Of a stretch of DNA of 64,000 nucleotides, positions 7,516 through 42,486 are shown in pieces. The notes beneath the pieces are model-generated. The model worked only from the letters and a program-made list of their open reading frames with translations. It did no database searches and was not told where the DNA came from. Both the position numbers and the translations under genes were made by a program. Location: the IMG/VR virus record IMGVR_UViG_3300043184_000020. One strand, written 5' to 3'. Position 1 is the stretch's first letter; each line of letters begins with the position of its first letter. The DNA comes from a virus.

Positions 7516-7518
7516 CTC

Positions 7519-8679: not shown

Positions 8680-10710
8680 ATGAGACTAGCACAGCACGCA
8701 AACAAGCTCGAAACTAACGTCCAGGTTGAAAGTCAAAACTTCGGAATCGGTGACGCATCGGTCGTCATCGAGATCTTGAGAAACCGACTCTATCAGCATA
8801 AGATTCGCACGCTCGTTCAAGAGTATATCTGTAACGCGAGGGATGCCCATAGAGAAGTTGACTCGCGGGAAAAATTGATCGTGACGGTACCTAACCGCTT
8901 GAATCCTATCTTTAAGGTTCGAGACTTCGGTCCTGGTATCTCTCCCGACCGCATGCGCGACGTGTTCATCATGTACGGCGCTAGCACTAAGCGCGGGACT
9001 AACAAGCAGACCGGCGGTTTCGGCATCGGTGCAAAGTCAGCATGGAGCTACACCGACTCTTTCACGATCGTGTCGATCACCGAAGGCAAGCGTCGCACCT
9101 ACGTGGCGCATACCGGAGTGAACAACAACGGACGCCTTGACCTCATCGAGACCGTCGACACGGACGAGCCTAACGGCACCGAGATTCAGGTTTCCGTCAA
9201 GCCTAGCGACCTCGAAGAGTTTAAGAACTCAGTGCTCCGAGCTATCCACTTCTGGCCTCAAAAACCTACGCTCAAGGGTTTGGTGGACGCTCCTACTGAC
9301 TCAGGCTTACAGCAAGGTCTGAGCCTTGAACTCGGAAAGCACTTCGAACTCGTGACCGGACTCCCATGGTACGTATCAGGTTCGAACTCATACAGCCGTG
9401 ACCTAATCGCGGTCATCGATGGAGTACCTTACGCTATCAATAGAGAACTTCGCGAGCGGGTAGCTTCGCTTGATGAACTCGCTACCTTGTGCCGTCAGCA
9501 CATGATCTTTCACGTAGGTAACGGACTCATCGAAGTTTCGGCGTCCCGTGAATCTATCGCGGACTCAAAGCAGACGATCGAAGCGCTTGACAAGCTTGCC
9601 TCTGCAGCTATCAAGGAAGTGAAAGCCTACGTCAAGGCCGAGTTTGACAAGGTGAGATCGGTTCACGATTTCATGGGTACGTATTCCCGACTAGAAAAGT
9701 ACGTTACGCTTGACGCGAGCCTCGCTGAGTTTCAAGGCTACAAGATCGAACGCGGAGCCATGAGTAACGCTACGCTTGAGCCTCACTACTTGAAGGAGAC
9801 CGTATCGCCTCAGTATCGCAGTAACTCGGTGGCCGACGGCGTGCGTCGTAACGACAAGACCTCGAAACCCTTCGCGCTTGCAGACTACGGAAACATCTAC
9901 TACGTCGACGTGGTGGAGTCTCGGGTCATCGAGAATCGTCGCCTACGCACTATCCTGGCAACGGCTCGAAACGGTTTCGTACTGATCAAGAAGCACGACA
10001 AGAGCGACCCTAAGCTTTGGAATCAGCTGATCACGGACCTCAACGCTATCCCGCTTTCAAGTGTTCAGATGACGAAAGCCGCTCCGGTTCAGCGAGTCGC
10101 TAAGGCCGTAACCGAGATCACGGTTCACATCCCACGGTCTAACAATCGCGAGACGGCGACCATCAACATAACTTCCAGCATGCACGACTACGTGTACGTG
10201 GAAACGCAAGCCGGTGAGTTTTTGGGATACCGACGCGAAGACCTCACAGATCTTGCCCGGTATCTCGATCAGCACCACGGCGTCAAGCTCGTAGGCTTGG
10301 CACCTTTGACGATCAAGAAGGTCCAAGGTCTGAGCAACTTCCAGTCTCTCGAAAGTTTCTGGAAGGCGTACAAGCCTGAGACTAAGGACCTACGCATCGC
10401 GAAGCGTACACTTTCGAAGAGCTTCGAGATCATGTCGGCTCTTAGTAAAGGTCCGAAGACGCGCTGTAAGTTCTTCTCAAAGATGCAGCTGGAGTATGCA
10501 GACATCGCAAGCTTTGCGAACGAGAGTACTCCTAAGATCATGATCAAGGTTCTTGAGAAGCTCGACGAGGTTAAAGACTTCGTAGAGAACGACTCCAAGC
10601 TCCAAGGTCAGATCGAAACTAAGTACAAGCTGCTCAAGATGTTTGACGCTTATAACCGATTCCGTGGAGATTCTGCAGAGTGGGTTGAATATATTAACGC
10701 TAAGTCCTAA
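8680..10710 (+). CDS. rIIA: rIIA-like protein (GHKL ATPase fold)
   Basis: N-box ICNARDA, G1 box VRDFGPGIS and G2 box GGFGIGAKS; 676 aa; directly upstream of an rIIB homolog. Confidence 0.75.
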   Translation: MRLAQHANKLETNVQVESQNFGIGDASVVIEILRNRLYQHKIRTLVQEYICNARDAHREVDSREKLIVTVPNRLNPIFKVRDFGPGISPDRMRDVFIMYGASTKRGTNKQTGGFGIGAKSAWSYTDSFTIVSITEGKRRTYVAHTGVNNNGRLDLIETVDTDEPNGTEIQVSVKPSDLEEFKNSVLRAIHFWPQKPTLKGLVDAPTDSGLQQGLSLELGKHFELVTGLPWYVSGSNSYSRDLIAVIDGVPYAINRELRERVASLDELATLCRQHMIFHVGNGLIEVSASRESIADSKQTIEALDKLASAAIKEVKAYVKAEFDKVRSVHDFMGTYSRLEKYVTLDASLAEFQGYKIERGAMSNATLEPHYLKETVSPQYRSNSVADGVRRNDKTSKPFALADYGNIYYVDVVESRVIENRRLRTILATARNGFVLIKKHDKSDPKLWNQLITDLNAIPLSSVQMTKAAPVQRVAKAVTEITVHIPRSNNRETATINITSSMHDYVYVETQAGEFLGYRREDLTDLARYLDQHHGVKLVGLAPLTIKKVQGLSNFQSLESFWKAYKPETKDLRIAKRTLSKSFEIMSALSKGPKTRCKFFSKMQLEYADIASFANESTPKIMIKVLEKLDEVKDFVENDSKLQGQIETKYKLLKMFDAYNRFRGDSAEWVEYINAKS

Positions 10711-10711
10711 A

Positions 10712-13742: not shown

Positions 13743-13744
13743 GA

Positions 13745-14979: not shown

Positions 14980-14981
14980 TA

Positions 14982-15248: not shown

Positions 15249-15249
15249 C

Positions 15250-15828
15250 TTAGGATTCTGACACAATCCGATCGATAAGTCCAAGTTTGAGGGTTTCTTC
15301 AGAGGTAAGGTAGCAGTCCCGTTCGCAAAGCTTCTCGAAAGTTCGAGCTTTAGTGGTACCTTTTGAGAACTCTTCGTACATCATGCACATCTGTTTCTCT
15401 AATGTTTCCGTATGCTTAAGCTGAATCTTAAGGTCAGACAGCGTGCCCTTAATCCAGTCGGAGATCTCATGGATCATGAGCCAGGAATGCCTACCCATCA
15501 AGCGTTCGTCACCCGCCGCAAGGATGAAGGTGGCTGCAGACATGATCTTACCCCACCCCCGAGTGATGATATGGCAGGGAGAGGACCTGATACGATCGAC
15601 GATGCCCATCATGTCGTAGACCGAACCGCCGTAGGAGCTGATCTCTATTCGGATCTGAGCCTCTGGATTCTTGTCCATCTCGTCGAGAGCCTTCATGACA
15701 AGCTCAAGGGAGCACTCGTCGACGTCGTCGTTAAGGTAGATTACTCGTTCTCTGAAGTTGACGTTGCGCTCGAAGATGTTGTCATAGTGATCGGTGTTTC
15801 TTTCACGAGCCACATCGTCTCCTTTCAA
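15250..15828 (-). CDS. ClpP-family (S14) serine protease
   Basis: ISSYGGSVYDMMGIVDRI...GKIMSAATFILAAGD...WLMIHE matches the ClpP core with Ser and His in place; start uncertain (TTG 15828 or GTG 15813 after AAGGAG). Confidence 0.8.
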   Translation of the reverse strand: MKGDDVARERNTDHYDNIFERNVNFRERVIYLNDDVDECSLELVMKALDEMDKNPEAQIRIEISSYGGSVYDMMGIVDRIRSSPCHIITRGWGKIMSAATFILAAGDERLMGRHSWLMIHEISDWIKGTLSDLKIQLKHTETLEKQMCMMYEEFSKGTTKARTFEKLCERDCYLTSEETLKLGLIDRIVSES

Positions 15829-16021: not shown

Positions 16022-16714
16022 TCAAGCTTGAGAAGTAGATTCTGGGGAAGCTTCAGCTTGCTTCGCAGCCTCTTCTGCTTCCTTAGCCTTAGCAGCGGCT
16101 TCCGCAGCAGCTTTAGCTTGGAGTTCTGCCTTGAGTCGGTTGTGCTGTTTGATCAGCTCGCCAACTACAGAAGTCTTGTAAGGAGTACGAACTTCGTGGA
16201 TGTGAAGATAAAACTTAGCTTTGCGGCTCTTAAGATGCTCAGGGTAGTTCTCAGGGAATTGAACCGTGACCTCGATCTCTTCACCAGCCTTACGACCGAT
16301 GAGAGCGTCTTCAAAGCCAGCGATCATCTTGCCCGTTCCGAGTCCGTTCAGGATGAACAGCTCGCTGTTACCACCGTCGAACAGGGCTGGAACTCCAGGA
16401 GCAAGCTCTTCCATGGAGCCGTCTTCCTTGAGCAGCACACCAGCGTAGTCCATCAGGACGTTGTCGCCAGCTTTGGAAGCTTCAGTGGTAGCTACGGAAG
16501 CTTCCCACTCTTGGATCTGACCAAGATTCTGAGTGACTTCTTGTTGAAGTCGAGAATGACCTTGAAGCAAGCTCATGATCATCTGACCTTGACGTTGAAG
16601 GATCGACTCGTGCTTCTGAGCGATCGTGGCGTTCTCTTGCATCACCTGCCCTTTGGTGGGCTGGGGAGCTTGTCGAAAACCTTTGCGGAACTGACTGACG
16701 TTATCGTTGGACAT
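16022..16714 (-). CDS. trigger-factor-like FKBP-type PPIase domain protein
   Basis: GDNVLMDYAG...GKMIAGFEDALIGRKAGEEIEVTVQFPENYPEHLKSRKAKFYLHIHEV parallels the E. coli Tig PPIase domain (RVTIDFTG...[49 protein letters not shown]); AAGGAG RBS. Confidence 0.75.
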   Translation of the reverse strand: MSNDNVSQFRKGFRQAPQPTKGQVMQENATIAQKHESILQRQGQMIMSLLQGHSRLQQEVTQNLGQIQEWEASVATTEASKAGDNVLMDYAGVLLKEDGSMEELAPGVPALFDGGNSELFILNGLGTGKMIAGFEDALIGRKAGEEIEVTVQFPENYPEHLKSRKAKFYLHIHEVRTPYKTSVVGELIKQHNRLKAELQAKAAAEAAAKAKEAEEAAKQAEASPESTSQA

Positions 16715-16741
16715 GTATAGTTCTCCTTTTAGAGTTACAGT

Positions 16742-17520: not shown

Positions 17521-18357
17521 TCAAGCTTTTTTCTTAGGCTTGTGGACGTGCAGCTGACAGCGGCATCGCGGGTGAGTCGGTCCTACCGTAGGCAACCAGT
17601 CTCGCTTCTTCTTTCCGAAGTTAGAGCCGTTTGCTTGGAGTTCCGATAACTTATAGAGCTTGGGCGTACCGTCAGCGTTGGTGTAGAACCTTCTGCACCA
17701 TTGACATAGACGAGCATCGCTGATAACAGTCTTGTAGACGAGTTGGTCCTTGGGAGCTTCCCCGGTGAACAAGCTGTCTGAGGTGGCGTTGTCTAGGATG
17801 GCGTCGTTTACGACGTGCGTTAGCGTGGTGGTGAACCCTCGTTCGAACTGACTGGCTACGGAAGCCATGATGATAGGAATATAGTTTAGAAGTTCTTGCT
17901 TCTCGGCTTGGAGACGTTCTTGAACTTGTTCGGGAGACGTCACACGGTTAACGGCGACGACCTGTCGGTGCTTGCGGTTGGCGTCTACCAGCTTCTGTCT
18001 GAGCTGCTTCTTAAGCTCTTCTCTGCTGGTCTCTATGACGTCCGTGAAGGCCGCCTTAGCGGTGTCGAGAGTGCCTTGCTGAGCATCGTTCAGGATAGGA
18101 AGTGTTCGAAGTCTGGCTTGGTCTAGTAAGCTTGAGATGGAAGAGTTCTTAGGGTACCCGTTGTCTGGTCGGTTCCTGAGAAGCACGTAAAGGAGTTCTA
18201 TGACAGCTCTCTGGCCCAGTATGAGACCTAGTTGTTCTACCTTGATCTTGTCCTCGTCAGACATCAAAGCGTCACCGACGAGCGCAAACAAGAGCCCTAA
18301 GTAGGCCTTGTCTACGATCTCGTCGATGTTCTTGTAGAGCCGTCTATCAGCGAGCAT
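17521..18357 (-). CDS. MuF/SPP1 gp7-like head morphogenesis protein
   Basis: C-terminal THPRCRCQL (H-x-x-CRC motif of PF04233); position just after the portal gene. Confidence 0.7.
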   Translation of the reverse strand: MLADRRLYKNIDEIVDKAYLGLLFALVGDALMSDEDKIKVEQLGLILGQRAVIELLYVLLRNRPDNGYPKNSSISSLLDQARLRTLPILNDAQQGTLDTAKAAFTDVIETSREELKKQLRQKLVDANRKHRQVVAVNRVTSPEQVQERLQAEKQELLNYIPIIMASVASQFERGFTTTLTHVVNDAILDNATSDSLFTGEAPKDQLVYKTVISDARLCQWCRRFYTNADGTPKLYKLSELQANGSNFGKKKRDWLPTVGPTHPRCRCQLHVHKPKKKA

Positions 18358-18565
18358 GGCGTTCGATCTCCTGCCTTATCTCGCTCTCGATCTGTTCAAG
18401 CGTAGCGGCGTGCATCTTTAGAAGGTCGTCGTGAAGCTTGTTCAACCATTCGTCGGAGTACTTCTCTCCGTCCGTACAGTCGTGCTTAGCTTTGAGCGCC
18501 TTCTCTAGAAACTCGTCAGCATCTTCCGGATGCTCGTGCGGTAAGAGTTCAATCTTGACCTTCAC
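18347..18565 (-). CDS. hypothetical protein
   Basis: 72-aa acidic ORF between the portal and MuF-like genes. Confidence 0.45.
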   Translation of the reverse strand: MKVKIELLPHEHPEDADEFLEKALKAKHDCTDGEKYSDEWLNKLHDDLLKMHAATLEQIESEIRQEIERHAR

Positions 18566-18568
18566 GAC

Positions 18569-20359: not shown

Positions 20360-20373
20360 AGAACCTCACTCAT

Positions 20374-20402
20374 ATAATACCAGGGAAGTAGGGATATGTC
20401 CA
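20374..20402 (-). promoter_or_regulatory. promoter, TGGACA-N17 with extended -10 TGgTATTAT
   Basis: Minus-strand reading of the terL-portal gap. Confidence 0.5.
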
Positions 20403-20404
20403 GC

Positions 20405-22183
20405 TCAGAAAGTGAACCAGAAATCTCCATCCTCGTCTTCCTTCTCTTTTTGTTCCTGCTCTTTACGACCGTCGTAAAACTGCGTTAAACCTTGGATGTC
20501 CGCGATGTCTTGGGCTGTGGGAGTCCCGATGTAGTTACCTAACGCGTCCTTGTTGCTTGCTGACCCGTCGTCCTCATCGTCACGGCTGTACCCGATGTAG
20601 ACCGGAGATGTCTTATCAAATTGGTAAACTACTCCTGCTATGACGATAGCGTAGTCGTCATGACTGTTCGCCGCAGCTGCGATCTGAACCTTGTTTGATA
20701 TGGCGCTTCGCCTCTCCCGAAGATCCTTAAGATGCTGAACGGCGATAGGGTTATGCACCATGAGGAAGCTCTTCGTGTTGAGCGCTACCTGCAGCGAGTA
20801 CATCATCTTGATCTTGGAGGAGTTGTGAAGCGTGTACTCCTTGAGCACGATACCTTCTTTGGCGAACAGAGGTTTGAGCGCTCCGAAGGCGTATTGATCG
20901 GCGAGACAGAACGGCACCTGATACTTCTTAAGGATGTGGCAGATCTCGGGAACGACCTCTGCGGGGTCAAGCTCTGCTCCGTCGCTTCCTCTCCAGTGTA
21001 CTAGGACGTCGCAGTACACCTTCTCGAGCTTGTCCTTGGAGTTAGGGTCCATGACGTACTCTTTGTGCCCCACCGCGAGAGTCCAGTAGTCGTTTCGAGT
21101 AGCGTAGTCGATCATGGCTACGTAGCGGTAACCTTTCTGGTAGTCCAGCTCTTCGGTTCCTCGGATGATTCCAAGCTCGATGAGGTTCGGGTCCAAGTAG
21201 GAAGCTTCAGAAGCCGTGTACTCAGCTCCGTACTCTCGGTTGAAGTAGTTCATCCCCTTCTTCTTCTGCTTCTCAAGGTAGCTTACGGCAAGCTTAGGGT
21301 TAGCGTACCAGGAGGGAACTTGTAGGTGTAATACGTCTTTGTCGGTGCGGCCTAGGTAGTCGTTGAACTGAAGCCCGGCTTGTCCGTTCGGAGACGAGAT
21401 CTTAAGCACGAGCGCCATACCCTCGATCTGTTGAAACTGCGAGAGGGCCGGGGCTAGAGCTTCGTAGATACCTTTGTCGGTGTTCTTCGTGTCGTTACCC
21501 TCAACTCCGAAGAAGCAGTTCTCGTCCAGGATCGCGAAAGGTACGGCCATACCTCGGATCTTTGAGACGTCAGCAGCCATGACCTTGATCACGACCTTGT
21601 TGTTGAGCTTGATCTGTCCACCCTTGATGGAGCCTGGGTTCTTGAGGTCTTCCTCAGAGTACTCGGCCTGGATGTTGTCGATCTTACCGTCGAGGAACTT
21701 ATCGAATATCCAAGGAGATTTCAGGCAGAAGTTCTTGATCGCAGCGAACACCTCACCGGCCTGTTCTTTCGTGGCCGAGATGATCGGAATGGTTGCGTGA
21801 GGAGAAGTACCAAGGTAGGGTATATAGTCAAACTGGGTGGCGTAATACAAGGCGAGCCCCGCTCCGATGGTCGTAGACTTACCCGAGCGTCGACCAAAGC
21901 ACAGCGAGGCGTCGGAGTAGTGCTGCATCGCGTAGCTCTCCTTGCCGGAGAAGTGCAGGAACATCTCGATCTCGTTCTTGAAAACGTAGGTCTCCCCATC
22001 TTCCGCAGTGTACGCGAACGGAGATTCCTGATAGACGTGAGACTTCGGGATAGGTGCGAAAGCGTCCAGCGGCTCACAGCGGATGGCCTTCAGCGTAACC
22101 TTCTGAACAGGAGAAAGGTTCGTGACGTCTAGGATGGTCTCGAAGAAGTCGATGATGGGAAGTTGGTGAAGCTTGGTGCTCAC
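20405..22183 (-). CDS. terL: terminase large subunit
   Basis: Walker A GRRSGKST, Walker B AILDE, C-terminal nuclease-type acidic residues; 592 aa. Confidence 0.9.
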   Translation of the reverse strand: MSTKLHQLPIIDFFETILDVTNLSPVQKVTLKAIRCEPLDAFAPIPKSHVYQESPFAYTAEDGETYVFKNEIEMFLHFSGKESYAMQHYSDASLCFGRRSGKSTTIGAGLALYYATQFDYIPYLGTSPHATIPIISATKEQAGEVFAAIKNFCLKSPWIFDKFLDGKIDNIQAEYSEEDLKNPGSIKGGQIKLNNKVVIKVMAADVSKIRGMAVPFAILDENCFFGVEGNDTKNTDKGIYEALAPALSQFQQIEGMALVLKISSPNGQAGLQFNDYLGRTDKDVLHLQVPSWYANPKLAVSYLEKQKKKGMNYFNREYGAEYTASEASYLDPNLIELGIIRGTEELDYQKGYRYVAMIDYATRNDYWTLAVGHKEYVMDPNSKDKLEKVYCDVLVHWRGSDGAELDPAEVVPEICHILKKYQVPFCLADQYAFGALKPLFAKEGIVLKEYTLHNSSKIKMMYSLQVALNTKSFLMVHNPIAVQHLKDLRERRSAISNKVQIAAAANSHDDYAIVIAGVVYQFDKTSPVYIGYSRDDEDDGSASNKDALGNYIGTPTAQDIADIQGLTQFYDGRKEQEQKEKEDEDGDFWFTF

Positions 22184-22785
22184 TTAGTCTCCGAGTTCTT
22201 CGCGTGCTGCGCAGCGATGAGTGCCATGGCTTCCTGGACGGTGATGTGCTTGCCAGCCTTCTTCATCTCGAGCGCTAGTCGAACAGCATCGTCCATGTCG
22301 ACCTTCTGGATATGAACCACTTCCTTACGCTCAACGCCGTCGGTCTTGATCGACTGATCGGTCTTTACGAGCTTCTCAAGCATCGCGGTGTACTTGTTCA
22401 GCGAGTCGGCCATGGCCATAGCGGTCAGGTCAGGAGCCTTCTCAGAACCGATGTCCCGCATCAACTTGGCTAGGTTCATGCCTTGGATCTTGAGCAGGAG
22501 TTTCAGGTTTCCTTCAGCTACGGCCTTAGTGGTGGAGTCTTCGCGAAGTAGGTGTCTGATGGAGTCGCGGTACTTGCTCATGAGGTCTAGCTCACGATCA
22601 CGCTCCTCCTTCCAGCCCTTCTCTCTGGCCCAACGGTACAACGTAGCTTCGACCATCCCGTACTCTCTTGCGAGCTGTGGGATGCCTTTTCCTCGTATGT
22701 ACTCTTCTCTCACGGCCTCTAGGTTAGGCGGGCTATCTTCCCTCTCCTGCTCGGCTTGCGAGGGTTGTGTGTTTTCTTCGGACAT
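22180..22785 (-). CDS. terS: terminase small subunit (HTH)
   Basis: HTH IPQLAREYGMVEATLYRWAREKGW; 4-nt overlap with terL. Confidence 0.6.
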   Translation of the reverse strand: MSEENTQPSQAEQEREDSPPNLEAVREEYIRGKGIPQLAREYGMVEATLYRWAREKGWKEERDRELDLMSKYRDSIRHLLREDSTTKAVAEGNLKLLLKIQGMNLAKLMRDIGSEKAPDLTAMAMADSLNKYTAMLEKLVKTDQSIKTDGVERKEVVHIQKVDMDDAVRLALEMKKAGKHITVQEAMALIAAQHAKNSETK

Positions 22786-23311
22786 CTGGCAACCTCTTGA
22801 TAACTTTCAAGTGGGTATGCAGCTTCTCTTTGTAGACCGTTCTCAGGCTTGGAGTAAAGCTGTGGAACCGTGTATACCATACCCGACCGTTCCTGGCATC
22901 TATCATAGCATACTTCTGCTTAAGATCTGATAGGTACCTAGCAGTTTCTTCGATCGCGTACCGTTTGTCGGTTAGTAGACGACCTAAGTCAAGTTTTAGG
23001 TGACGAATAGTCTTATGGTTGAACTGCGAGATCCCGTAGTCGTGAGACTCCCAGTTGACCGCCTTGTAGTTGAAGTTAGACTCCTGCTTCACTATCGCGA
23101 TGATGACCCACCACTCGACGTTGTGCTGCTTAGCGGCGCTCTCTACGTGGTAGGCGAGCTTGTCAGCGTAGGCCTGATCAAGACTTGGGGTCAGCTTTAG
23201 GATCGCTTGCTTGATCTCCTGGTTCACCTTCGGCTTTGTCTGCTTCGCCTGACCGACCTGGGTCGGCGTCCAAAGAAACATCAAGGTCGCGAGCATTGCT
23301 AGGTATCTCAT
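22733..23311 (-). CDS. lytic transglycosylase (SLT domain) with signal peptide
   Basis: IVKQESNFN...YGISQFN SLT motifs; start set to ATG 23311 after GGAG. Confidence 0.75.
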   Translation of the reverse strand: MRYLAMLATLMFLWTPTQVGQAKQTKPKVNQEIKQAILKLTPSLDQAYADKLAYHVESAAKQHNVEWWVIIAIVKQESNFNYKAVNWESHDYGISQFNHKTIRHLKLDLGRLLTDKRYAIEETARYLSDLKQKYAMIDARNGRVWYTRFHSFTPSLRTVYKEKLHTHLKVIKRLPDVRRKHTTLASRAGEGR

Positions 23312-23660
23312 GTGATTTCTCCACACCTTTCTTGTATCGTCTCAACTCCACCGTGATCTCGTAGCCAGACAGGTATTCCCGAAGGAATTCGGTTACCCGA
23401 GTGACCAGTTTGTCGCGGTTAGAGAAGAGCAGAGTTAAAGTCGGGAAGTATAGCACCACCAGTACCCTCCGAGCGTCTGGATTGCGAGGTAGGAAGTACT
23501 CTACATACCTGACCTTCGGAAAGGCTACGTACAGGTTTGCCACGATCGCGTTGTGCGCGAAGGAGGTGACTACGCCGTACTTGCGTAGCCATGCATCACC
23601 TGCGGCGATGACAGCTTCGAGTTCGGTTGGACCTGGTTTAGACTTTCCGTCGTTCATCAC
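23178..23660 (-). CDS. hypothetical protein
   Basis: GTG 23660 or ATG 23657 start; disordered acidic tail overlaps the SLT gene by about 134 nt in another frame. Confidence 0.4.
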   Translation of the reverse strand: MMNDGKSKPGPTELEAVIAAGDAWLRKYGVVTSFAHNAIVANLYVAFPKVRYVEYFLPRNPDARRVLVVLYFPTLTLLFSNRDKLVTRVTEFLREYLSGYEITVELRRYKKGVEKSHEIPSNARDLDVSLDADPGRSGEADKAEGEPGDQASDPKADPKS

Positions 23661-32303: not shown

Positions 32304-34700
32304 TCACTTAGCTTCAGCGAAGTTATCGCTGATGACCGGTTCCGCCAAGATGGGGATGTCGATCTGCTCAGTGATGGGGTTGTTCTCCATAGCGTCTTGC
32401 AAGAGTTGTGCCGCCTTCTCGGCGTGATCCTCTCGCACGATACAGGTGATCTCGTCGTGAACCTGTAAAGCGATGTAACCGTCGATCTCAAATTCATCAA
32501 AGAGATCAGCGAGTTTAATCATAGCGGCGTTCGCCACGTGTCCGGCAGTGCCTTGAATGGGGTGGTTAGTTGACAAGTTTAGGTAACCTCTGTACTCGTA
32601 GTACGTCTTGGTACCAAACTCCTCACCGTAACGCTCCACCATCTTCTTCTTGCTCTTAAGCAGGGTGCCAAACTTTCGGTAGATCTCTCTCGCCTTCGGT
32701 AGTCGTCGGACCCGACCGAACGGAGTTTCGACCTTGCCACGAGTCGTGGCTCGAACGTGCTGGGTCGTGATGTAGTTCTTGAGTCCAGGGTAGGCGTTGA
32801 GATACTTGTCGATGATCTGCTGAGCTTCCATGTAGTCGACCTTCATGAGGCCAGCGATCCTACCCGCACCTGCGCCGTAAGCGACGGCGAGAGCGAACGT
32901 CTTAACCTTCTGTCGATACTCAGGCATGACCTTCTTCAGGTAGTTAGGAGCAGACTCGTCAGCGGATACGCCTTCTAGCCCGAACACGTCGATCGCGATC
33001 TGCGAGTACAGGTCAAGCTTCTTTCTCCAGATGTCCTTCAAGCCTTCGTCTCCAGAAACCCAGCTGAAGATCCTAGGCTCAAGAGCTGAGAAGTCGGCGT
33101 TTACGACCTTGTATCCAGGAGGAGCGATGAAGCCCTTCTTGATCCGCTTGTCGTCGCGAGGAAGAGTTTGCAAGTTCAAACCACCAGCGCAGGAGTAGCG
33201 TCCAGAAGTAGTTCCGAACTGGAGCATGCCTGGATAGAGCCAACCGTCGACGTGCTTCTCTAGAATTGGACGTACGTAGGTTGACAACAGCTTCTCGGTC
33301 TTCTTAAGCTCAAGCAGCTTCTTGATGAAAGGTAGGTCGTCGTAGGTTTCAAGTGAGTTCTTGTCGACCGTAGGTTTGCCGGTCTCCTTGGAGTGTGAAC
33401 GCGGCTCGACGCCGTAGCACTCAAAGAGTAGCCATGACAGGTCTTCGTTAGATGACAAGTTAAAAACGTGAGGGAGGTCGGGATCTTTCTCTACAAAGAT
33501 CTCCCGCTTCACGGCATAGCGAACCTGGTCCGGGATCGTCGGTGCGCCTTCAGGTAATGGTAACGGCACCTTGCGTTGCTTGGTGACCGTTATCTTAGTT
33601 CCGTCCGGCTGCTCAACCTCTTCTGTGTAAGTCTCTACGTCGAACGGAGGGTCGTAGAGTAACCACAGAATGGCAGGGTGCTCAGGAAAGGCTTCGAGAA
33701 GAGGTCGCAGCTCACTTTTAGCCAGTGTGGGCTTTCCCGTCCGTTTATTTGTAGGAATCGGGATCGAATAATGCTGCAACAACCGCTCGGCATATTTGCC
33801 TGTCCTGGTCTCCTTCACGGCTTCGTCGAGAAGTTGCCGAACGTAAGGTTCAGCTTTCTCTTCGATGACCGAGAAGATCTCACCAGTCAGCTTCAGTATA
33901 TCATCTTGGAGTTCCTTTTCCAACTTGCGGAAGTATTCTACGTCGACGAATATCCCACCTAAACGCATGGGTATGGTAGCCTTCTTGTAGAGAGGCATGA
34001 CCTCTTCGTCGTAGAAGAACTCTTCTAAACCTTCTTCGGACAGTTTAGGGTGTAAGTAGTTGAAAAGCTTGAGAGTTAGGTCGGTATCGGCACACGCGTA
34101 GGTCCCTATGATCTGAGGGTCCCCCATGTAGATGTCTTTGTTCTCTTTGTTCCACTTCCCACCGCGAGCTATGACCGACTCCTTCAGTAGCTGCTGTTCT
34201 TGGTTAGCTGCTTCCTCTGCGGTGAAGCCGATGTACTCCTTGTACTTCTCTGCGATCTCTTTGAGACCGAAAGGGCGCTCCTCGTCTAGCGTATGCTTGA
34301 GCACCGTGGTATCGGCTACCAGAGCTTCTGTCAGGTTTACCTTGTACCGATGATGGATGACCGCGATGTCGAACACTCCGTTGTGCATGACGAGGTTCTT
34401 CTTAAGAAGGATGTCGCAGAGCCACTGCATCAGGTCCTTCTCTTCCTGCTCGGGAAGTAGGGCTACTAGCTTCTTGTTAACCTCGTCCCACTCTCTCAGA
34501 ACGATGTACGCGCCTTGGTTCTCTTCCCAGGAGAACGACACACCGATGACGTTACAACGCACCTCGACGAGACCATCCGTCTCGATGTCGAAAGATACTA
34601 GGTCGTCTGCAGCTTCAAGCTCGTTAAGAAGAGCGATCGTTGCGTCGACGTTGGTTGTACGCACCACTCGGTACTGTTTGCCGTTCATCATCCCTCGCAT
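32304..34700 (-). CDS. family A DNA polymerase with 3'-5' exonuclease domain
   Basis: Exo I FDIETDGL, Exo II HNGVFD, Exo III YACADTD; Pol motif A DFSALEPRI, motif B RQKVKTFALAVAYG, motif C QVHDE. Confidence 0.95.
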   Translation of the reverse strand: MRGMMNGKQYRVVRTTNVDATIALLNELEAADDLVSFDIETDGLVEVRCNVIGVSFSWEENQGAYIVLREWDEVNKKLVALLPEQEEKDLMQWLCDILLKKNLVMHNGVFDIAVIHHRYKVNLTEALVADTTVLKHTLDEERPFGLKEIAEKYKEYIGFTAEEAANQEQQLLKESVIARGGKWNKENKDIYMGDPQIIGTYACADTDLTLKLFNYLHPKLSEEGLEEFFYDEEVMPLYKKATIPMRLGGIFVDVEYFRKLEKELQDDILKLTGEIFSVIEEKAEPYVRQLLDEAVKETRTGKYAERLLQHYSIPIPTNKRTGKPTLAKSELRPLLEAFPEHPAILWLLYDPPFDVETYTEEVEQPDGTKITVTKQRKVPLPLPEGAPTIPDQVRYAVKREIFVEKDPDLPHVFNLSSNEDLSWLLFECYGVEPRSHSKETGKPTVDKNSLETYDDLPFIKKLLELKKTEKLLSTYVRPILEKHVDGWLYPGMLQFGTTSGRYSCAGGLNLQTLPRDDKRIKKGFIAPPGYKVVNADFSALEPRIFSWVSGDEGLKDIWRKKLDLYSQIAIDVFGLEGVSADESAPNYLKKVMPEYRQKVKTFALAVAYGAGAGRIAGLMKVDYMEAQQIIDKYLNAYPGLKNYITTQHVRATTRGKVETPFGRVRRLPKAREIYRKFGTLLKSKKKMVERYGEEFGTKTYYEYRGYLNLSTNHPIQGTAGHVANAAMIKLADLFDEFEIDGYIALQVHDEITCIVREDHAEKAAQLLQDAMENNPITEQIDIPILAEPVISDNFAEAK

Positions 34701-36891
34701 CTTGTTCCTGCTGTTGAGCTAACCGCTTAACCTCAGAACTCAAGGTTTCATCTTTCAAAACTTCTTTGACTCGGTCGACCGTGGACTTCTCCTTGCTCTT
34801 AAAGATCCTAGGAGCACGATTCTCCTTAGGAGGCATAGAGCCAAACTTACCAGCACTGCGTCCGCGATCAGCTACCGGAACATCATCCTCTTTGTTAGGC
34901 TCGTCGAACCAGTTAAACTTCGGCCTGTCGAGACCAGCTTGCTCCATGGCTACGCAGTAGTCTTCAAACTCGTCTTGTCTAAGCTCGTACACGGTACCAG
35001 TCTTACCTTCCCATCCGAACACGTTCTCGCCTAGAGGACCGGAGCGGTTCTTTGCCACGTAGATGTGTATGTACTTATCTTCTCCGTCTACGCCGCTTCC
35101 TAGCGGTCTCCAGCACGTGAGCACGCAGGTAGCGTTCTCTTCCCAAGCTCCGGAGTCCTTCGAAACCCGGCTAGACCTGAGAGGGTCCGTATGGTCACCG
35201 TTCTCTCGAGAGACCTGAGCTAAGAAGAGGAAGTGACAGTTCGTACGCTTGGCCACGTCGTTAGCCATCATAGCGTTCTGGGTAGAGGAGGCGTATTGGT
35301 TTTCGAACTCGCCCATCAACCGACCAGCGTAGTCAACGATAGCTAGCTGAAGGTTGTCGTACACCTGCTTAAGACTCATCACGGTCTGCTCGATGTACTG
35401 AAGTGTGACCGCTGAGCTAAAGTCGAACAAGGTGAAAGGCATTCTATCCTTCACGGCCTTCATAACCTCAGCGATGATCACGGAGTTTCTAGTGTTCACG
35501 TTGAACGCAGCTTCGATCTGACGCTGAGAGTACTGAGTGTACTTAGCTCCTAGCTTCTCGAAGATCGAAGAGTCCGCCATGTCCATGGAGAAGAACACGT
35601 GAAAGATCTTCTGATCGTTCAGAGCCTCCATCGTCTGGATCATCAGAGACGTTTTACCTGACCCGTTTGCTCCAGCAAGGATGCTGAAGTTCTTAGGTCG
35701 AAGTCTGACTCGCTCGTCGAGCCAAGGTATGCCCATCTTGGGGTAGGAAAGCTTCGCCTCTTCGCCGTACTTGACGTACCTGTTAGCAAGCTGTTCGATC
35801 GAGATTACGTTTCGGATCTTGACCTTAGCATCGTTATAGCAAGGACCGTTACCATGGTCACACTTGGACTGCAGCAAGGTGTCGGTCTTACATGAGTAGG
35901 TACCGCCCTTCCAATCCTTACCGTACACCTGGTCGATCTCTCGGTTAACCTCGGCCTCGTCGACCTGGTTAGCTTCTGGAAACAAGGATGAACGGTTATG
36001 AAGCGCCTGTTCGATCAGCTCACCTGCATACTCACGAGAGTAGCTTTGACCCTTGTAGTACGCCGCAAGCCTGAGTACAGCTTCGTGCCTCTGACCTGGA
36101 GTGATATCACCTTGCTCTAAGGCGTATACGCAGCGCCTATGACCTGGAGGGCATAAGCTGAAGTCTACGATAGGCTCTGAGAAGACTTGCTCAGTCTCGC
36201 CATCCACACCACCCTCGCTGAGTCGTAAGGGAGTCTTACGCTTAGGATGAGCGACGATGTTGGCGTACTTTTTCTTGAGCGCCTCTGCGTCTACAGGCTG
36301 GATGTCGAACTCTTCCTCACGAAGCTCCTTCGCCATGTCCTTGATCACTTCCAGCTTAAGGTCTTTTAACTCCTCTATGCTGATAGGAATCTTGTACAGC
36401 TTGGACTTCTGATGCCTGGTGTTGGGAATTCGGAAGATCCGCGTCACGTTGTAAACTGAGGTGTCGAAAACGTCCTGCGGGACCCCAGCTTCCATGGCCA
36501 AGTTATAACACACCGCTGAGACCTCGGTGGGCAAGAACCTAGACTTGGTGTGAAGAATGACGTGGAAGCCTTTAGACCCAGAGAAGAATATCTCTAAAGC
36601 CTTTGAGAAGCCCAACCCAGCAAGATGATCACAGAGTGCGATGGCGGCCTTACGAGCCTTTCCAGTGTCCGTCTCTGAGTCGAGATCGAACCACAGGATA
36701 GACGAGTAAGTCTCTCCGTTGTACCCTTTGATGCTCTCTTCGTTGGCTTCCCAGTAGTCCTTGGCGTCCTCGCCGTAAACGTAGGCGGAGCGGTACCAGT
36801 CGACCTCGCGGTCGGTGATTACCTTGGACACATCCGAAGGACGTACCAGTACACCACGGTCGTTGACCGTTCGTGTTACCCGTACGTACAT
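34624..36891 (-). CDS. AEP prim-pol / DnaB-like helicase fusion
   Basis: AEP motifs WFDLDSE and SGSKGFHVILH; helicase Walker A GANGSGKTS and Walker B LAIVDYAG. Confidence 0.85.
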   Translation of the reverse strand: MYVRVTRTVNDRGVLVRPSDVSKVITDREVDWYRSAYVYGEDAKDYWEANEESIKGYNGETYSSILWFDLDSETDTGKARKAAIALCDHLAGLGFSKALEIFFSGSKGFHVILHTKSRFLPTEVSAVCYNLAMEAGVPQDVFDTSVYNVTRIFRIPNTRHQKSKLYKIPISIEELKDLKLEVIKDMAKELREEEFDIQPVDAEALKKKYANIVAHPKRKTPLRLSEGGVDGETEQVFSEPIVDFSLCPPGHRRCVYALEQGDITPGQRHEAVLRLAAYYKGQSYSREYAGELIEQALHNRSSLFPEANQVDEAEVNREIDQVYGKDWKGGTYSCKTDTLLQSKCDHGNGPCYNDAKVKIRNVISIEQLANRYVKYGEEAKLSYPKMGIPWLDERVRLRPKNFSILAGANGSGKTSLMIQTMEALNDQKIFHVFFSMDMADSSIFEKLGAKYTQYSQRQIEAAFNVNTRNSVIIAEVMKAVKDRMPFTLFDFSSAVTLQYIEQTVMSLKQVYDNLQLAIVDYAGRLMGEFENQYASSTQNAMMANDVAKRTNCHFLFLAQVSRENGDHTDPLRSSRVSKDSGAWEENATCVLTCWRPLGSGVDGEDKYIHIYVAKNRSGPLGENVFGWEGKTGTVYELRQDEFEDYCVAMEQAGLDRPKFNWFDEPNKEDDVPVADRGRSAGKFGSMPPKENRAPRIFKSKEKSTVDRVKEVLKDETLSSEVKRLAQQQEQDARDDERQTVPSGAYNQRRRNDRSS

Positions 36892-37908: not shown

Positions 37909-39012
37909 TTACTCCTTCGCTTTCTTGTCTTCGAGATACGAGATCTCTTCGAGCTTCTTACGACCCCAGCAGTGCTCGTAGAACTCACACGGTTTTCCGT
38001 AAGCCATACAGCTTGTGGGGTTCTTGAAGTTAACCTCGTTCTTGATGGCGGCCACGACGTTTGCGTAGTCTTCCATCAGGTCCTCGATCTCTTCTTCGGA
38101 ATACTCTTTGAACACGAGCTGCGTCTCTCCTCGAAGCTTAGCGATCGTGTACTGACCCTTGCCGCACTTCTTGCAGTTCTTGGCCATACCTTCGCGCTCT
38201 GCACCGCAGTTGTCGCAGGACTTGTCGATCTTAACCTTCTTGAGAAGGATGGCGTAACCTGCTTTGTTAGACCCGATCTCGTTACCAAGCGCGGCTACGT
38301 AGGTTCTGAGCTGCTCAGACGACTCAAGCGCATGCCGGTCGTAGGGGTAAGAAGCTGTCTTCAAGTCTAGGATCAGCCAGCCGTGAGTCTTGTGAAAGAC
38401 TACGTAGTCGACGTACCCAGAGATCTTGTCGCCTTTGTCCCCGACCATGGCGATCTCTCGCTGCTTTGCGAGATGCTCGGTCTTGGTCATGTCAAGCTCA
38501 GGAAGGATCTCACGCTCGAACGCCTCGACCATGGCGTTACCACGAATACGGCAACACTCCCAGATGACTCGGTTGTAGAAGGCAAGCTCGGAGTCGGTGA
38601 CTCCCTTAGGAGACTTGATAGCCTCACCAACCTCCTCGAAAGCCTCAAGCCATCGCTTCTCTGGTCCGATAAGCTCAGCTGCCCAAGCGTCGAGTTTTGC
38701 TTCATCTTGAGCGGTCGCGAACAGGTTCTTGTCGAAGTCTGACGCGTAGAACTGGATCTCAAGGTTGTCGAAGATCTGTCGATACTCGCTACCTTTGATG
38801 TGCTCGACCTCCCAGTTAGCCGCAAAGGCTTGCTGAGCGTCCTCTAACGTGCCGCCGTCCATCAGAACGTCAACGCCCTTCTCGACCGCCTTACCGAAAG
38901 GAAAAGCTGACGAGATGCGTCGGTCTTGCCAACGCTTCGAGAGGAAGAACTTGGTAGGGCACTGCTTGTACTTAGAAGCTCCCGAGTAAGAAACGAAAAC
39001 AGGTCTGCTCAT
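37909..39012 (-). CDS. PD-(D/E)XK nuclease, Cas4/RecB-like, with inserted zinc ribbon
   Basis: GYVDYVVF...ILDLKT nuclease core; N-terminal Cys plus C-terminal C-x6-C-x5-C (Fe-S-type); internal CDNCG-x10-CKKCG ribbon. Confidence 0.7.
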   Translation of the reverse strand: MSRPVFVSYSGASKYKQCPTKFFLSKRWQDRRISSAFPFGKAVEKGVDVLMDGGTLEDAQQAFAANWEVEHIKGSEYRQIFDNLEIQFYASDFDKNLFATAQDEAKLDAWAAELIGPEKRWLEAFEEVGEAIKSPKGVTDSELAFYNRVIWECCRIRGNAMVEAFEREILPELDMTKTEHLAKQREIAMVGDKGDKISGYVDYVVFHKTHGWLILDLKTASYPYDRHALESSEQLRTYVAALGNEIGSNKAGYAILLKKVKIDKSCDNCGAEREGMAKNCKKCGKGQYTIAKLRGETQLVFKEYSEEEIEDLMEDYANVVAAIKNEVNFKNPTSCMAYGKPCEFYEHCWGRKKLEEISYLEDKKAKE

Positions 39013-39119
39013 GATTGCACCGCCCAGTTAATTAAGGTTAGGGCAAAGAAGAGCGCTGCCCAGTGATAAGCCTTGTCTAGAAGATTTACTACGCACATGA
39101 TCGCCATGAGGTACGTCAT
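39009..39119 (-). CDS. micro-ORF, 36-aa TM peptide
   Basis: ATGA overlaps at both ends (GroEL stop and nuclease start); MTYLMAIMCVVNLLDKAYHWAALFFALTLINWAVQS. Confidence 0.4.
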   Translation of the reverse strand: MTYLMAIMCVVNLLDKAYHWAALFFALTLINWAVQS

Positions 39120-40777
39120 CCCATCAACCCCGCTAGAGGATTAGGCATTCCGTCCTTAGACTCGGCATCAGCTACGATAGCGCCTCCGGTCGTAAGAAGC
39201 AAGCCTACGATCGATACCGCGTTCTCGAGGGCGGACTTCGTGACCTTGAGGGGGTCGATGATTCCTGACTCGAGAAGATTTACGAACTCCTTCTTACGCG
39301 CATCATAACCAACGCCCGGTTTTCCTTCATAGGAAAGCTTGGTCAAGATGACCGAAGGATCTCCTCCGGAGTTTGCGATGATCCGCTTGATGGGCTCCTG
39401 AAGAGCCTCGTGCATGATCTGTCTGGCTACGGTGTTAGTGTCCATGGCCTGAGCGATCCGGTACAGGGAGTAACCTCCACCGGGGAGCACACCTTCCGTG
39501 ATCGCAACTTTTGCGGCGCAGAGCGCGTCTTCGATGCGGTCCTTGCGCTCCTTCATCTCAAGCTCTGAAGCTCCGCCGACTCGAATGATGGCGACACCGC
39601 CGGTAAGTTTACCGATACGTAGCCTGAGGTTGTCCTTGTCGAACTCGTGAGCGGTCTCTTCGAGCTGCTTCTTAAGATCGTCAACACGACTAAGCACAGC
39701 TTCCTCAGAACCTTCTCCGCCGTAGAACACGGTCTCTTCCGGACCGATTACCACACGCTCGCAGCATCCAAGATGCTCGTCTGAGATCTTTGACAGGTCC
39801 AAGATTCCTCGAGCCATGACGGTTCCGCCTAGGAGAGCCGCGAGATCTTCCATCATCTGGGTCCTGGTGTTAGGAGAACCATCGAAAGGGGCTTTGATGG
39901 CCGCGATGGGCATCTTACCTTGAACTCGTAAAGCCATGAGATGGTTCTTCACGTCGTCAGAGTAGTCGTAAGCGATGAACAATATAGGAAAGGGAGCTAC
40001 CTGAGGCATCCCACTCTCGTCTAGCTGCCAGAGTCTCTTAAGAACGTCAGACACCTCAAGCTCAGTCTTGATCTCACCTGCGTAGGTTAACACGGCGGGA
40101 CGCTCAAGATCGCAGATGTTGCGAGCACGGTTGTTCACCATGTGGAAGCCTAGAGGGCCAAACTTACGCCAACCTTGTTTGTAGTGTGCGCCTTCGATCT
40201 TCTCAAGCTTCGTGTCTCGGGAGTAGCCGTCTTCGAGCGAGATGTGTCCATCTTCGCCTACAGCCTTGATGGCTTCGGCTACGACCTGAGCAGTCTCCTC
40301 GTCTCCGTTTGAGGAGATGCGGGCCACGTCTACCAGACGCTCCTCAGAGATCGGTACCGACATCTTGACGAGGTAGTGAACCACTTCGTCCTTCAGCTGC
40401 TTAAGCTCCTCGTAGAGCCCGATGCCGTTGATACCTTGACGAACGTGCTTAAGCCCAGCGCGGAGCATAGCGTCCGCAAGTACGATGGAGGTGGTAGTGC
40501 CGTCACCGGCCTGGTTTACGGTGTTCTTAGCGACCTGTAGGATGGTCTGCGCGATGGTATTCTTAGTGTGATTACGATAAGTTACGTGCTCTGCGACGGT
40601 CACGCCGTCTTTGGTGATGACAGGAGACTTAGGGTTTCCGTAGGGATCGGTTCCGTGCTGCTCGAGGATGATCGGGTTACCGCCTGGGCCGAGGGTCTGG
40701 CCTACGATCTGAGCGATCTCAGATACGGTCTCCTGAGCGATCTGGCGGGCATCCTGAGCGCCTACGATCTTACGCAT
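39116..40777 (-). CDS. groEL: GroEL-type chaperonin
   Basis: AGDGTTTSIVLA, GGVAIIRVGGASELEMKERKDRIEDAL and EGVLPGGG match GroEL signatures; 553 aa; C-terminal tail PNPLAGLMG instead of GGM repeats. Confidence 0.95.
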   Translation of the reverse strand: MRKIVGAQDARQIAQETVSEIAQIVGQTLGPGGNPIILEQHGTDPYGNPKSPVITKDGVTVAEHVTYRNHTKNTIAQTILQVAKNTVNQAGDGTTTSIVLADAMLRAGLKHVRQGINGIGLYEELKQLKDEVVHYLVKMSVPISEERLVDVARISSNGDEETAQVVAEAIKAVGEDGHISLEDGYSRDTKLEKIEGAHYKQGWRKFGPLGFHMVNNRARNICDLERPAVLTYAGEIKTELEVSDVLKRLWQLDESGMPQVAPFPILFIAYDYSDDVKNHLMALRVQGKMPIAAIKAPFDGSPNTRTQMMEDLAALLGGTVMARGILDLSKISDEHLGCCERVVIGPEETVFYGGEGSEEAVLSRVDDLKKQLEETAHEFDKDNLRLRIGKLTGGVAIIRVGGASELEMKERKDRIEDALCAAKVAITEGVLPGGGYSLYRIAQAMDTNTVARQIMHEALQEPIKRIIANSGGDPSVILTKLSYEGKPGVGYDARKKEFVNLLESGIIDPLKVTKSALENAVSIVGLLLTTGGAIVADAESKDGMPNPLAGLMG

Positions 40778-40973
40778 CGGAAGACTCTCCAGGCTGGTTA
40801 GAAGCTAGGCGCTGAGCGTCCATGGCGGCTGCTGCGCGTTTGATCTCGGCTTCTGAAAGCTTGGAAAGGATGAACGCTTCAAGCTCCTCAACCTGGCCTT
40901 TACGGATGTTGGAAAGCTTTCCCTGCGTCACCCAGCTGTATAAGAACTTCATGCAATCGTCTCTTAGGTTCAT
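40770..40973 (-). CDS. hypothetical protein (not GroES-like)
   Basis: 67-aa helical ORF; ATG 40973 lies 7 nt after a -10-like hexamer. Confidence 0.45.
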   Translation of the reverse strand: MNLRDDCMKFLYSWVTQGKLSNIRKGQVEELEAFILSKLSEAEIKRAAAAMDAQRLASNQPGESSDA

Positions 40974-40980: not shown

Positions 40981-41009
40981 ATCCTACCTTCTTAGTGGTT
41001 CTAGGTCAA
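40981..41009 (-). promoter_or_regulatory. promoter, TTGACC-N17-TAGGAT
   Basis: ATG 40973 begins 8 nt after the -10; no SD; divergent from the helicase promoter. Confidence 0.45.
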
Positions 41010-41023: not shown

Positions 41024-41052
41024 TTGACTGTCTCACCGTGTTATGGCATCCT
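41024..41052 (+). promoter_or_regulatory. promoter, TTGACT-N17-CATCCT
   Basis: ATG 41059 begins 7 nt after the -10; no SD. Confidence 0.4.
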
Positions 41053-41058
41053 AGTTAC

Positions 41059-42486
41059 ATGGTTAAGCTTACCGTCCAGAACAGCTACTGTCAAGTCGAA
41101 GGTCTCACCTCAGAGCTTGAGAAGCGCCTTAAGGAAGAGATGCGCTACATGAACCAGTCGGTAGCTTACACCTACCACTCGAACCAGCGCGAGATCAACA
41201 GAATCCAGGCCATCCTGAACGACAAGTCGATGAAGCACGACGGATCTCTAGAAGGTCGTCTGAAGTTCTTGGAAGCTCAGAATCGTGGGTTGTTTCGAGA
41301 TCTCTACAAGGTCTTGTTCCGAGACGGACAGTTTCCCACCGGACTTCTTCCTAAGTTTAAGTCCATCATGGACGGATGCGGAGCAGAGTATCAAGTATCT
41401 GATCTGAGGCGTGAGCCCAAGAAGAAGCAGCTGAACTTCGTGCTCGCTAGGAGCTTCCCTCTTATGCGCTACTACCAGAGAGCGGCGTCTAGGGTCGCGA
41501 TGGAGAAGGGTCGTGGTATCGTGGTCGCGCCGACGGGTACCGGCAAGACCTTGACCGTGGCACGTATGATCTGGGAGATGGGCGTTAAGACTCTGATCAT
41601 CACACCTAACAAGGCGATCACGGACAACATGCTAGATACTCTTACTCACTACTTCGGTAAGGGTAAGGTAGCAAAACTTTCAACTAAGTCTGTAAAGACC
41701 AAGGCCATAAACGTGGTCAACATCCAAGCTCTGATCAAGATCGACGCTAAGGTTTTCGAAGACGTCGACATGGTCATCATCGACGAGTTTCACCACGCTG
41801 CGGCGGCTACGTACCTAGAGGTTAATCAGAATCATCTGAAGAACGTGTACTACCGCATCGGTCTTACGGCTACGAACTTTCGAAACGACGGTGCGGACAT
41901 CGCTTTAGAGAGTGTGCTGTCGGAAGTTCTGTACGAGTACACCATCAAGCAAGCCATCGCTGATGAGTTTTTAGTTAAGCCCGAGTTCGAGATCGTGCCC
42001 ATCGAGCATGAGGGTAGGTCAAACTATCAGACTGAGTACAAGGAGTGTCTGGTCGAGAACGACGAGCGTAACGGTGTGGTAGCTGAGATCGTGGAACATC
42101 ACAAGAACGACTCGGTGATCGTGCTGGTTCAACAGATCGAACACGGTGAGCGCTTGGAGAAGCTCGTCAAAGGCTCTAAGTTCATCCACGGTGAAGAGAA
42201 GGATGATGTTCGTCAGAAGGCTATGGAAGACTTCCGGGCTGGTAGGCTAAAGTGCCTGATCGGGTCTAGCGTGATCGGTGAGGGTGTGGATCTTCCGAGA
42301 GCTAACATCCTGATCATGGCGGGTGGAGGTAAGGCTAGGTCTACGGTGATGCAGCAGATCGGTCGAGTGCTTCGACCTTTCGAAGGTAAGACGAAGGCCG
42401 TAGTGTACGACTTCAGCGACGAGGGTGCTTCGTACTTAGAAGAACACTCTGTACTTAGACAGGAGATCTACAATACTTATGCTTAA
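41059..42486 (+). CDS. SF2 DNA helicase (DEAD/DEAH, ResIII-type)
   Basis: Motif I APTGTGKT, motif II DEFHH, motif III TATNFR, motif VI QQIGRVLR; start moved from GTG 41038 to ATG 41059. Confidence 0.85.
   Translation: MVKLTVQNSYCQVEGLTSELEKRLKEEMRYMNQSVAYTYHSNQREINRIQAILNDKSMKHDGSLEGRLKFLEAQNRGLFRDLYKVLFRDGQFPTGLLPKFKSIMDGCGAEYQVSDLRREPKKKQLNFVLARSFPLMRYYQRAASRVAMEKGRGIVVAPTGTGKTLTVARMIWEMGVKTLIITPNKAITDNMLDTLTHYFGKGKVAKLSTKSVKTKAINVVNIQALIKIDAKVFEDVDMVIIDEFHHAAAATYLEVNQNHLKNVYYRIGLTATNFRNDGADIALESVLSEVLYEYTIKQAIADEFLVKPEFEIVPIEHEGRSNYQTEYKECLVENDERNGVVAEIVEHHKNDSVIVLVQQIEHGERLEKLVKGSKFIHGEEKDDVRQKAMEDFRAGRLKCLIGSSVIGEGVDLPRANILIMAGGGKARSTVMQQIGRVLRPFEGKTKAVVYDFSDEGASYLEEHSVLRQEIYNTYA

Follow-up and report, generated by a model that had tools for sequence, protein, structure and literature searches.

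A deeply diverged phage chaperonin with a remodelled apical groove and no neighbouring GroES

Phage-encoded GroEL without a phage GroES is already known, both from virioplankton (Marine et al. 2017, PMC5649160) and from the jumbo phages EL, OBP and AR9. The chaperonins of Pseudomonas phage EL (gp146), OBP (gp246) and Bacillus phage AR9 (gp228) work without a co-chaperonin (PMC7185714, PMC9598537). Early expression during infection is reported for the EL protein (PMC7185714), and the OBP protein is also without the R197-E386 pair (PMC9598537). For these lid-less chaperonins Bracher et al. left open 'an unrelated co-factor', and they noted remote homologues of GroES in other phages (PMC7185714). 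Marine et al. (2017) described a virioplankton 'GroEL' clade on contigs lacking GroES and gave two explanations, namely that no co-chaperonin is needed or that host GroES is used (PMC5649160). Phage T4 likewise adapts the chaperonin system for its own proteins, by a GroES-only strategy in which it supplies the lid (gp31) and borrows host GroEL. We analysed a 64,000-nucleotide (nt) stretch of a viral genome, IMG/VR record IMGVR_UViG_3300043184_000020 (hereafter the window), which encodes a GroEL homologue of 553 amino acids (aa). This phage shows the opposite arrangement to T4, as the ring is supplied and the searched part of the genome yielded no lid gene.

We propose that the protein is probably, although with considerable room for doubt, a ring-shaped, ATP-driven chaperone for phage proteins that acts without a canonical GroES lid. 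It would assemble into one or more heptameric rings and, driven by ATP, would hold and fold phage proteins in the course of infection. What is new here is the lineage-wide remodelling of the apical groove, the conserved tail that is not of the GGM type, and an obligate orphan neighbour.

The chaperonin and its apical groove

The 553-aa open reading frame (ORF) begins with ATG, with GGAG lying 9 nt 5' of it. It matched PF00118 (Cpn60_TCP1) in Pfam at 1.6e-55 (189.1 bits, cut-off 34.3) and phrog_5725 'chaperonin groEL' in PHROGs at 2.6e-117 across residues 3-540, a full-length profile match to the group I chaperonin family. It has the GDGTTT and GGG motifs together with D52, D398 and D495, and T30-P33 (TLGP), K51, D52, D87-T91, D398, G414-416 and D495 are invariant or nearly so in 35 aligned lineage sequences. 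An AlphaFold2 (AF2) model with a predicted local distance difference test score (pLDDT) of 83.4 had the equatorial-intermediate-apical fold, with Foldseek template modelling (TM) scores of 0.85 to 8wuc_A and 0.83 to 1aon_A. Judged by its sequence, the ORF is a full-length group I chaperonin in which every residue of ATP binding and hydrolysis is intact. The GroEL hallmarks that a first, sequence-only reading of the window had recognised were thereby borne out, as was its call of a PNPLAGLMG tail in place of GGM repeats. The protein shares with bacterial GroEL the three-domain fold (TM 0.83-0.85), matching ATP-site residues and a similar length, and bacterial GroELs were its best sequence matches among PDB sequences (296-332 bits). 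It differs from bacterial GroEL in being only ~36% identical, in the groove, in the change of R197 to Q and in the lack of a GGM tail.

Fenton et al. (1994) are reported to have shown eight apical residues that are required for both GroES and polypeptide binding, and we take these to be Y199, Y203, F204, L234, L237, L259, V263 and V264 of E. coli GroEL. Across 41 sequences of the lineage the hydrophobic groove is not retained, as six of the eight residues are replaced: Y199 is W in 40 of the 41, Y203 is L or H, F204 is M or L, L234 is S, G, A or T, L259 is K or R in every sequence, and V264 is Q, A or E. The position of L237 is occupied by L, I, V or M and that of V263 by L, M, V or I. In 106 GroELs that have GroES next to them these eight residues hardly vary, and 35 viral GroELs that lack an adjacent GroES largely retain them. 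Predicted helices 239-249 and 274-285 of the AF2 model coincide with E. coli helices H and I in the alignment, so the groove substitutions are no alignment artefact. It is chiefly because this groove, which binds the GroES mobile loop and substrate, is replaced at six of eight residues that we argue for a chaperone without a canonical GroES lid. The ion pair between R197 and E386 has largely been lost (R197 has become Q in the window protein, as in the majority of lineage sequences), and this loss, together with the replacement of the GGM tail by PNPLAGLxG, may point the same way as the groove. Co-chaperonin independence is plausible.

The chaperonin ends in ...KDGMPNPLAGLMG, and GGM repeats, which are typical of the family but non-essential, are absent from its C-terminus. 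The tail consensus in the 35 lineage sequences is PNPLAGLxG, with N546 and P547 invariant. Among the inter-ring contact residues, the sequence alignment shows K105, R452K and V464 as kept, and A109Q, the deletion of E434 and E461D as changes. Residues 40-46, residues 204-209 and the stretch between helices H and I carry insertions relative to Salmonella GroEL. In addition, five lineage GroELs (P0030, P0081, P0091, P0107 and P0109) are 879-889 aa long and each carry an intein of ~330 aa inside the nucleotide-binding motif, between GDG and TTT (equivalent window position 40499/40498). The intein has an unusual N-terminal residue, Pro, and ends in THN directly before the first T of TTT; Hom_end and/or LAGLIDADG_3 Pfam matches are recorded for three of the five. 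An intein placed exactly at this point must splice out for function, which fits a gene that is kept functional.

Lineage, GroES searches and the upstream small protein

No GenBank phage matched 20 kb of the window in a megablast search, and the best phage tblastn match to the GroEL had 37% identity. A collection of 5.8 billion proteins contained ~110 clusters (90% identity) at 48-100% to the window protein, followed by a drop to 38%; nearly all of these clusters come from metagenome assemblies, and the longest contigs are ~110-124 kb. In an alignment of 513 columns, the identity of the window protein is 49.5-82.8% within the lineage and at most 39.6% to 160 other GroELs sampled, a set of viral and cellular loci from IMG/VR and metagenome contigs. 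On the same alignment Salmonella GroEL is 58.6-83.8% identical to metagenomic GroELs. The lineage was monophyletic in 100 of 100 neighbour-joining bootstraps, and its distance to other GroELs was about twice the distance among those other GroELs. The chaperonin is thus part of a deep, monophyletic, metagenome-only lineage of myovirus-like phages, and the placement against host and phage GroELs that the sequence-only reading had called for sets it apart from both.

Pseudomonas phage EL gp146 (6tmt) matched the window protein at only 102 bits (E = 3e-28), as against 296-332 bits for bacterial GroELs, so closer kinship to the gp146 type than to bacterial GroEL was not found and the lineage is independent of the EL type. 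This score and the identity of at most 39.6% to sampled non-lineage GroELs show that the protein is neither a recent host copy nor of the EL type. It follows that the earlier view of a phage-encoded GroEL that is no near-identical host copy stands, while its appeal to the EL precedent holds for function, in that both lack a phage GroES, and fails for sequence kinship.

A single-protein search of IMG/VR gave no relatives. In a search of IMG/VR and metagenome contigs with the lineage alignment, generic GroEL patterns dominated, and the matches listed had 32-38% identity. A lineage-specific degenerate DNA pattern for KAPFDGSPN recovered three IMG/VR relatives and one GTDB contig; three further pattern matches (L166, L176 and L177) were rejected as chance hits. 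The ten relatives with DNA have GroEL identities of 48-73% and a locus GC content of 34-59%, a spread that suggests diverse hosts. One 26,862-nt contig (L178, CAYLHJ010000010.1), with a 72% identical GroEL and the small ORF described below, is binned in a Candidatus Saccharibacteria metagenome-assembled genome, and this is the only, and weak, hint of a host.

We searched for GroES in 78,803 nt, comprising the window and 10-kb extensions at both ends. The Logan contig SRR13020431_38772 (109,981 nt) is identical to the window wherever they overlap and lacks 6.2 kb of it, which gives a genome of ~116.1 kb, of which 68% was therefore searched; this GroEL is also encoded on another contig, 116,349 nt long. 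In the 64-kb window, Pfam found no Cpn10 on called genes and the GroES/gp31 PHROG families had no match on the small ORFs. A GroES hidden Markov model (HMM) was made from 106 GroES sequences adjoining GroEL, drawn from the 160 unrelated loci, and was run in six frames with the HMMER filters off. It recovered the positive controls (1.6e-34 for Salmonella GroES and 4.1e-28 for that of Flavobacterium phage vB_FspM_immuto), and its best match in the window had E = 0.29 at 7 bits. No Cpn10, GroES or gp31 was found by Pfam, PHROG or the custom HMM in the whole 78,803 nt. The HMM also had no match in 11 lineage GroEL loci, and in the relatives with listed gene calls none of the genes called up to 10 kb from GroEL has a recorded Cpn10 Pfam match. 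The absence of GroES beside the chaperonin and in the 64 kb, as first read, is accordingly upheld; the genome-wide search for cpn10 that had been proposed is negative over the 68% covered.

The slot directly upstream of GroEL is occupied by a 67-aa ORF, whose stop codon TAA lies within ATGCGTAA and which overlaps the GroEL start by 8 nt. Its AF2 model (pLDDT 82.9) has helices at residues 3-16, 25-38 and 41-58. The protein has no Cpn10 profile match, and its model is predicted to be three helices and not a beta-barrel with a mobile loop; comparison with the 106-sequence GroES alignment in hhalign gave a probability of 0.1%, that is, no relationship, in agreement with the first description of this ORF as helical and not GroES-like. 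In a first homologue search the ORF matched nothing but itself. When 1.84 billion representative proteins were searched exhaustively with HMMER, it fell into a family of only 19 clusters of 62-97 aa with the conserved core FLYxWVxxGKIPxIRKGMVEDLExFI. The small-ORF HMM matched directly upstream of GroEL in 11 of 11 lineage phages (E 1e-16 to 1e-36) and in none of the 160 non-lineage GroEL loci. The protein is 53-97 aa long across the relatives examined, with 28-42% identity in a five-sequence alignment.

The closest cultured relative by PolA (31%) is the above phage immuto (Immutovirus), in which GroEL is also part of the replication block and is 34.9% identical to the window GroEL. There PolA, GroES and GroEL stand in a row, with a canonical GroES directly upstream of GroEL, whereas in the present phage the groES slot holds the unrelated, predicted three-helix ORF. 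EL, OBP and AR9 differ from the present phage, with its genome of ~116 kb, in that they are jumbo phages and that a conserved small upstream partner has not been reported for them. The virioplankton clade is likewise viral GroEL without neighbouring GroES, a comparison made by description only; the available text of Marine et al. (2017) makes no mention of apical domains, helicase or exonuclease neighbours, or an upstream small ORF (PMC5649160).

Operon and other features of the window

GroEL is the second gene of an early/replication operon, which runs leftward in the order small ORF, GroEL, PD-(D/E)XK nuclease, primase-helicase, PolA, UvsY-like, UvsX-like and RuvC-like genes; its placement at the head of the replication block was thus correct. 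The start that reading gave, 39009, takes in, besides the chaperonin, a 36-aa ORF that is not conserved. This 36-aa ORF was called in loci L001/L002, is absent in relatives L172, L173, L179 and L180, and is not alignable with the ORFs in the same place in L170 and L171; it was rejected as a chaperonin partner for this lack of conservation. A sigma-70-like promoter candidate, TTGACC-17-TAGGAT, closely precedes the small ORF, in the 64-nt spacer between this operon and a divergently transcribed superfamily 2 (SF2) helicase gene. Gene order was compared in the loci with listed gene calls among the ten relatives with DNA and in one intein-bearing relative without DNA. In these the order is SF2 helicase, small ORF, GroEL, PD-(D/E)XK nuclease, several small genes, primase-DnaB and PolA. 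The nuclease keeps its position in every relative with listed gene calls, while the helicase is a conserved neighbour whose orientation differs among relatives. Phage genes found in the sequence include PolA, the primase-DnaB fusion, the UvsX-like and UvsY-like genes, a RuvC-like resolvase and rIIA/rIIB. With an encoded sheath initiator and baseplate J protein, the phage looks like a myovirus.

The sequence-only reading had also counted a trigger factor-like peptidyl-prolyl isomerase (PPIase) and ClpP, with the chaperonin, as three tiers of proteostasis, and this claim is weak. The best match of the ClpP-like ORF is to head maturation proteases and it lies near the portal gene; the FKBP-type PPIase gene, for which the domain assignment holds, stands between the portal block and this protease. 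Since both are in the portal/terminase block, they are better read as capsid-assembly genes. A longer plus-strand ORF over the FKBP gene (15989-16720) was rejected as an antisense artefact. The head module encodes small and large terminase, portal, the FKBP protein, the ClpP-like protease and a trypsin-like peptidase. No major capsid gene was recognisable in it, and this gene is presumably in the part of the genome beyond the searched sequence.

Elsewhere in the window, a HATPase_c_3 protein (8680..10710) was considered as an Hsp90-like chaperone and rejected, as the GHKL/HATPase_c_3 match belongs to rIIA. A region of ~1 kb without called genes contains ~8 CTAA(A)CCC repeats at 2844-2975, which are iteron- or telomere-like; Rfam had no match there, and the region could be an origin or a regulatory region. 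A ~33-nt motif, TAGAGAAC-N(8-10)-GCGGGGAGAATC, occurs in four tandem-like copies spaced 33-44 nt apart and at two distant sites, and the stretch around it (6363-8680) has dubious ORFs only; the copies are probably phage-specific promoters or regulatory repeats. Several plus-strand genes are preceded by promoter-like AATACTTGAC...TTGATATCC repeats, after which comes a conserved GAAAGGGAAAACATATG ribosome-binding/start context. Neither the Rfam scan nor the tRNA scan had a match in the window.

Table 1. Positions of the chaperonin, its neighbours and other features in the window
Feature	Coordinates	Strand	Evidence or remark
553-aa diverged group I chaperonin (GroEL/Cpn60 homologue)	39116..40777	-	Pfam, PHROG, AF2, Foldseek, neighbour-joining bootstraps
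GDGTTT nucleotide-binding motif, residues 91-96	40490..40507	-	Residue mapping; intein insertion point in five relatives
Apical helices H and I, residues 239-286; groove residues L234S, L259K, V264A in window protein	39920..40063	-	Alignment to Salmonella GroEL, comparison with 106 GroELs, AF2 helix boundaries
C-terminal PNPLAGLMG tail replacing GGM repeats	39119..39145	-	Alignment to GroEL; lineage alignment
67-aa lineage-specific predicted three-helix protein; candidate partner/regulator of chaperonin	40770..40973	-	AF2; conserved family; position
36-aa ORF between GroEL and nuclease	39009..39119	-	Poorly conserved, probably not functional
PD-(D/E)XK nuclease, same operon	37909..39012	-	PF12705 3.7e-11
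755-aa fusion, primase-polymerase-like domain and DnaB-type helicase	34624-36891	-	Overlaps PolA ORF by 77 nt
Sigma-70-like promoter candidate	40981..41009	-	9/12 consensus match only, no proof of function
SF2 (ResIII/DEAD) helicase	41038..42486	+	Pfam and PHROG matches
ClpP-like ORF	15250..15828		phrog_94, 5.8e-37
FKBP-type PPIase domain protein, 230 aa, trigger factor-like	16022..16714	-	Pfam 9.8e-9
Head module	14155-23326	-	
rIIA and rIIB homologues	8680-11551	+	PHROG 4.5e-82 and 5.3e-63
Region without called genes	2110-3125		
~33-nt motif sites	7864-8007, 11863-11895, 13705-13744		
Promoter-like AATACTTGAC...TTGATATCC elements	3312-3358, 4650-4687, 5592-5638		

Competing explanations and significance

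Several observations weigh against a chaperonin that works without a canonical lid. In sequence, the protein is far nearer to bacterial GroEL, which depends on GroES, than to the lid-less chaperonin of phage EL, and by Foldseek its AF2 monomer is like GroES-bound GroEL subunits, a likeness that says nothing on binding. The residues at L237 and V263 remain hydrophobic and could still allow some binding of the mobile loop. The part of the genome beyond the searched sequence, ~37 kb (32%), could hold a distant cpn10. As for the upstream 67-aa protein, it had no match in Pfam, PHROG, the PDB profile search or Foldseek, and gene overlaps of 4-8 nt are common throughout this genome, so its 8-nt overlap with GroEL is weak evidence of functional coupling.

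The main rival explanation is that host GroES serves as the lid, making a phage cpn10 unneeded. We consider this possible but on balance unlikely. Use of host GroES is one of the two explanations given for GroEL-only viruses by Marine et al. (2017, PMC5649160), and the greater nearness of the protein to bacterial GroEL (296-332 bits) than to EL gp146 speaks for it. In the 35 viral GroELs without an adjacent GroES, the mostly canonical groove fits a host lid. In the present lineage, however, six of the eight groove residues are replaced, with L259 changed to K/R in 41 of 41 and V264 to Q/A/E, and relatives of 34-59% GC probably have diverse hosts with differing GroES, which argues against tight adaptation to one host lid. 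A minor rival places a diverged GroES or gp31-like gene in the remaining ~37 kb (~52,990-90,324 of the Logan contig), given that only 68% of the genome was searched and that distant GroES homologues are found in other phages (PMC7185714). We judge this improbable, since phages with both genes normally have them adjacent, as immuto does (PolA-GroES-GroEL) and as do 36 of 80 IMG/VR GroEL loci, which have GroES in the retrieved flank, and since none was found near GroEL in the 11 lineage loci. Moreover, the structural genes seen run off the known edges, and for this reason the remaining ~37 kb probably holds capsid and tail genes.

A further explanation, which we hold to be doubtful, has GroES replaced by the 67-aa predicted three-helix protein as a chaperonin cofactor of a new kind (lid, adaptor or regulator). 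The protein lies directly upstream of GroEL in 11 of 11 loci with overlapping or abutting stop and start codons, while other neighbours vary; its family is confined to 19 representative clusters; it fills the place that GroES has in canonical operons; the lineage is also the one with the remodelled groove; and Bracher et al. leave room for 'an unrelated co-factor' (PMC7185714). On the other hand, the protein is too small to cap the ring as GroES does, it evolves fast (28-42% identity), and genes that stay side by side in phage operons need not encode physical partners. Speculatively, if the chaperonin has a dedicated cofactor or regulator, this protein is the foremost candidate, and there is a slim chance that the ring with its rebuilt groove works with it as an adaptor, regulator or minimal lid and not with a Cpn10 heptamer. 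A recently captured host groEL or a bacterial contaminant, which has nothing but the family name in its favour, is refuted by the identity distribution and by synteny: identity to sampled non-lineage GroELs is at most 39.6%, the gene sits inside a phage replication operon conserved across relatives, and the identical sequence occurs in independent assemblies (the Logan run and the JGI metagenome). A chaperonin acting without a canonical GroES lid remains the reading that we favour.

In conclusion, this lineage offers a natural experiment on how a group I ring folds proteins when it has no lid. If the small protein proves irrelevant, what is left is still a well-defined new phage chaperonin family, but an ordinary one. 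If it is a partner, it would answer to the 'unrelated co-factor' left open by Bracher et al. The chaperonin is near enough to bacterial GroEL for confident alignment and modelling, yet its GroES- and substrate-binding residues are replaced, and the ~110 clusters with a GC spread of 34-59% provide material for covariation analysis, multimer modelling and biochemistry.

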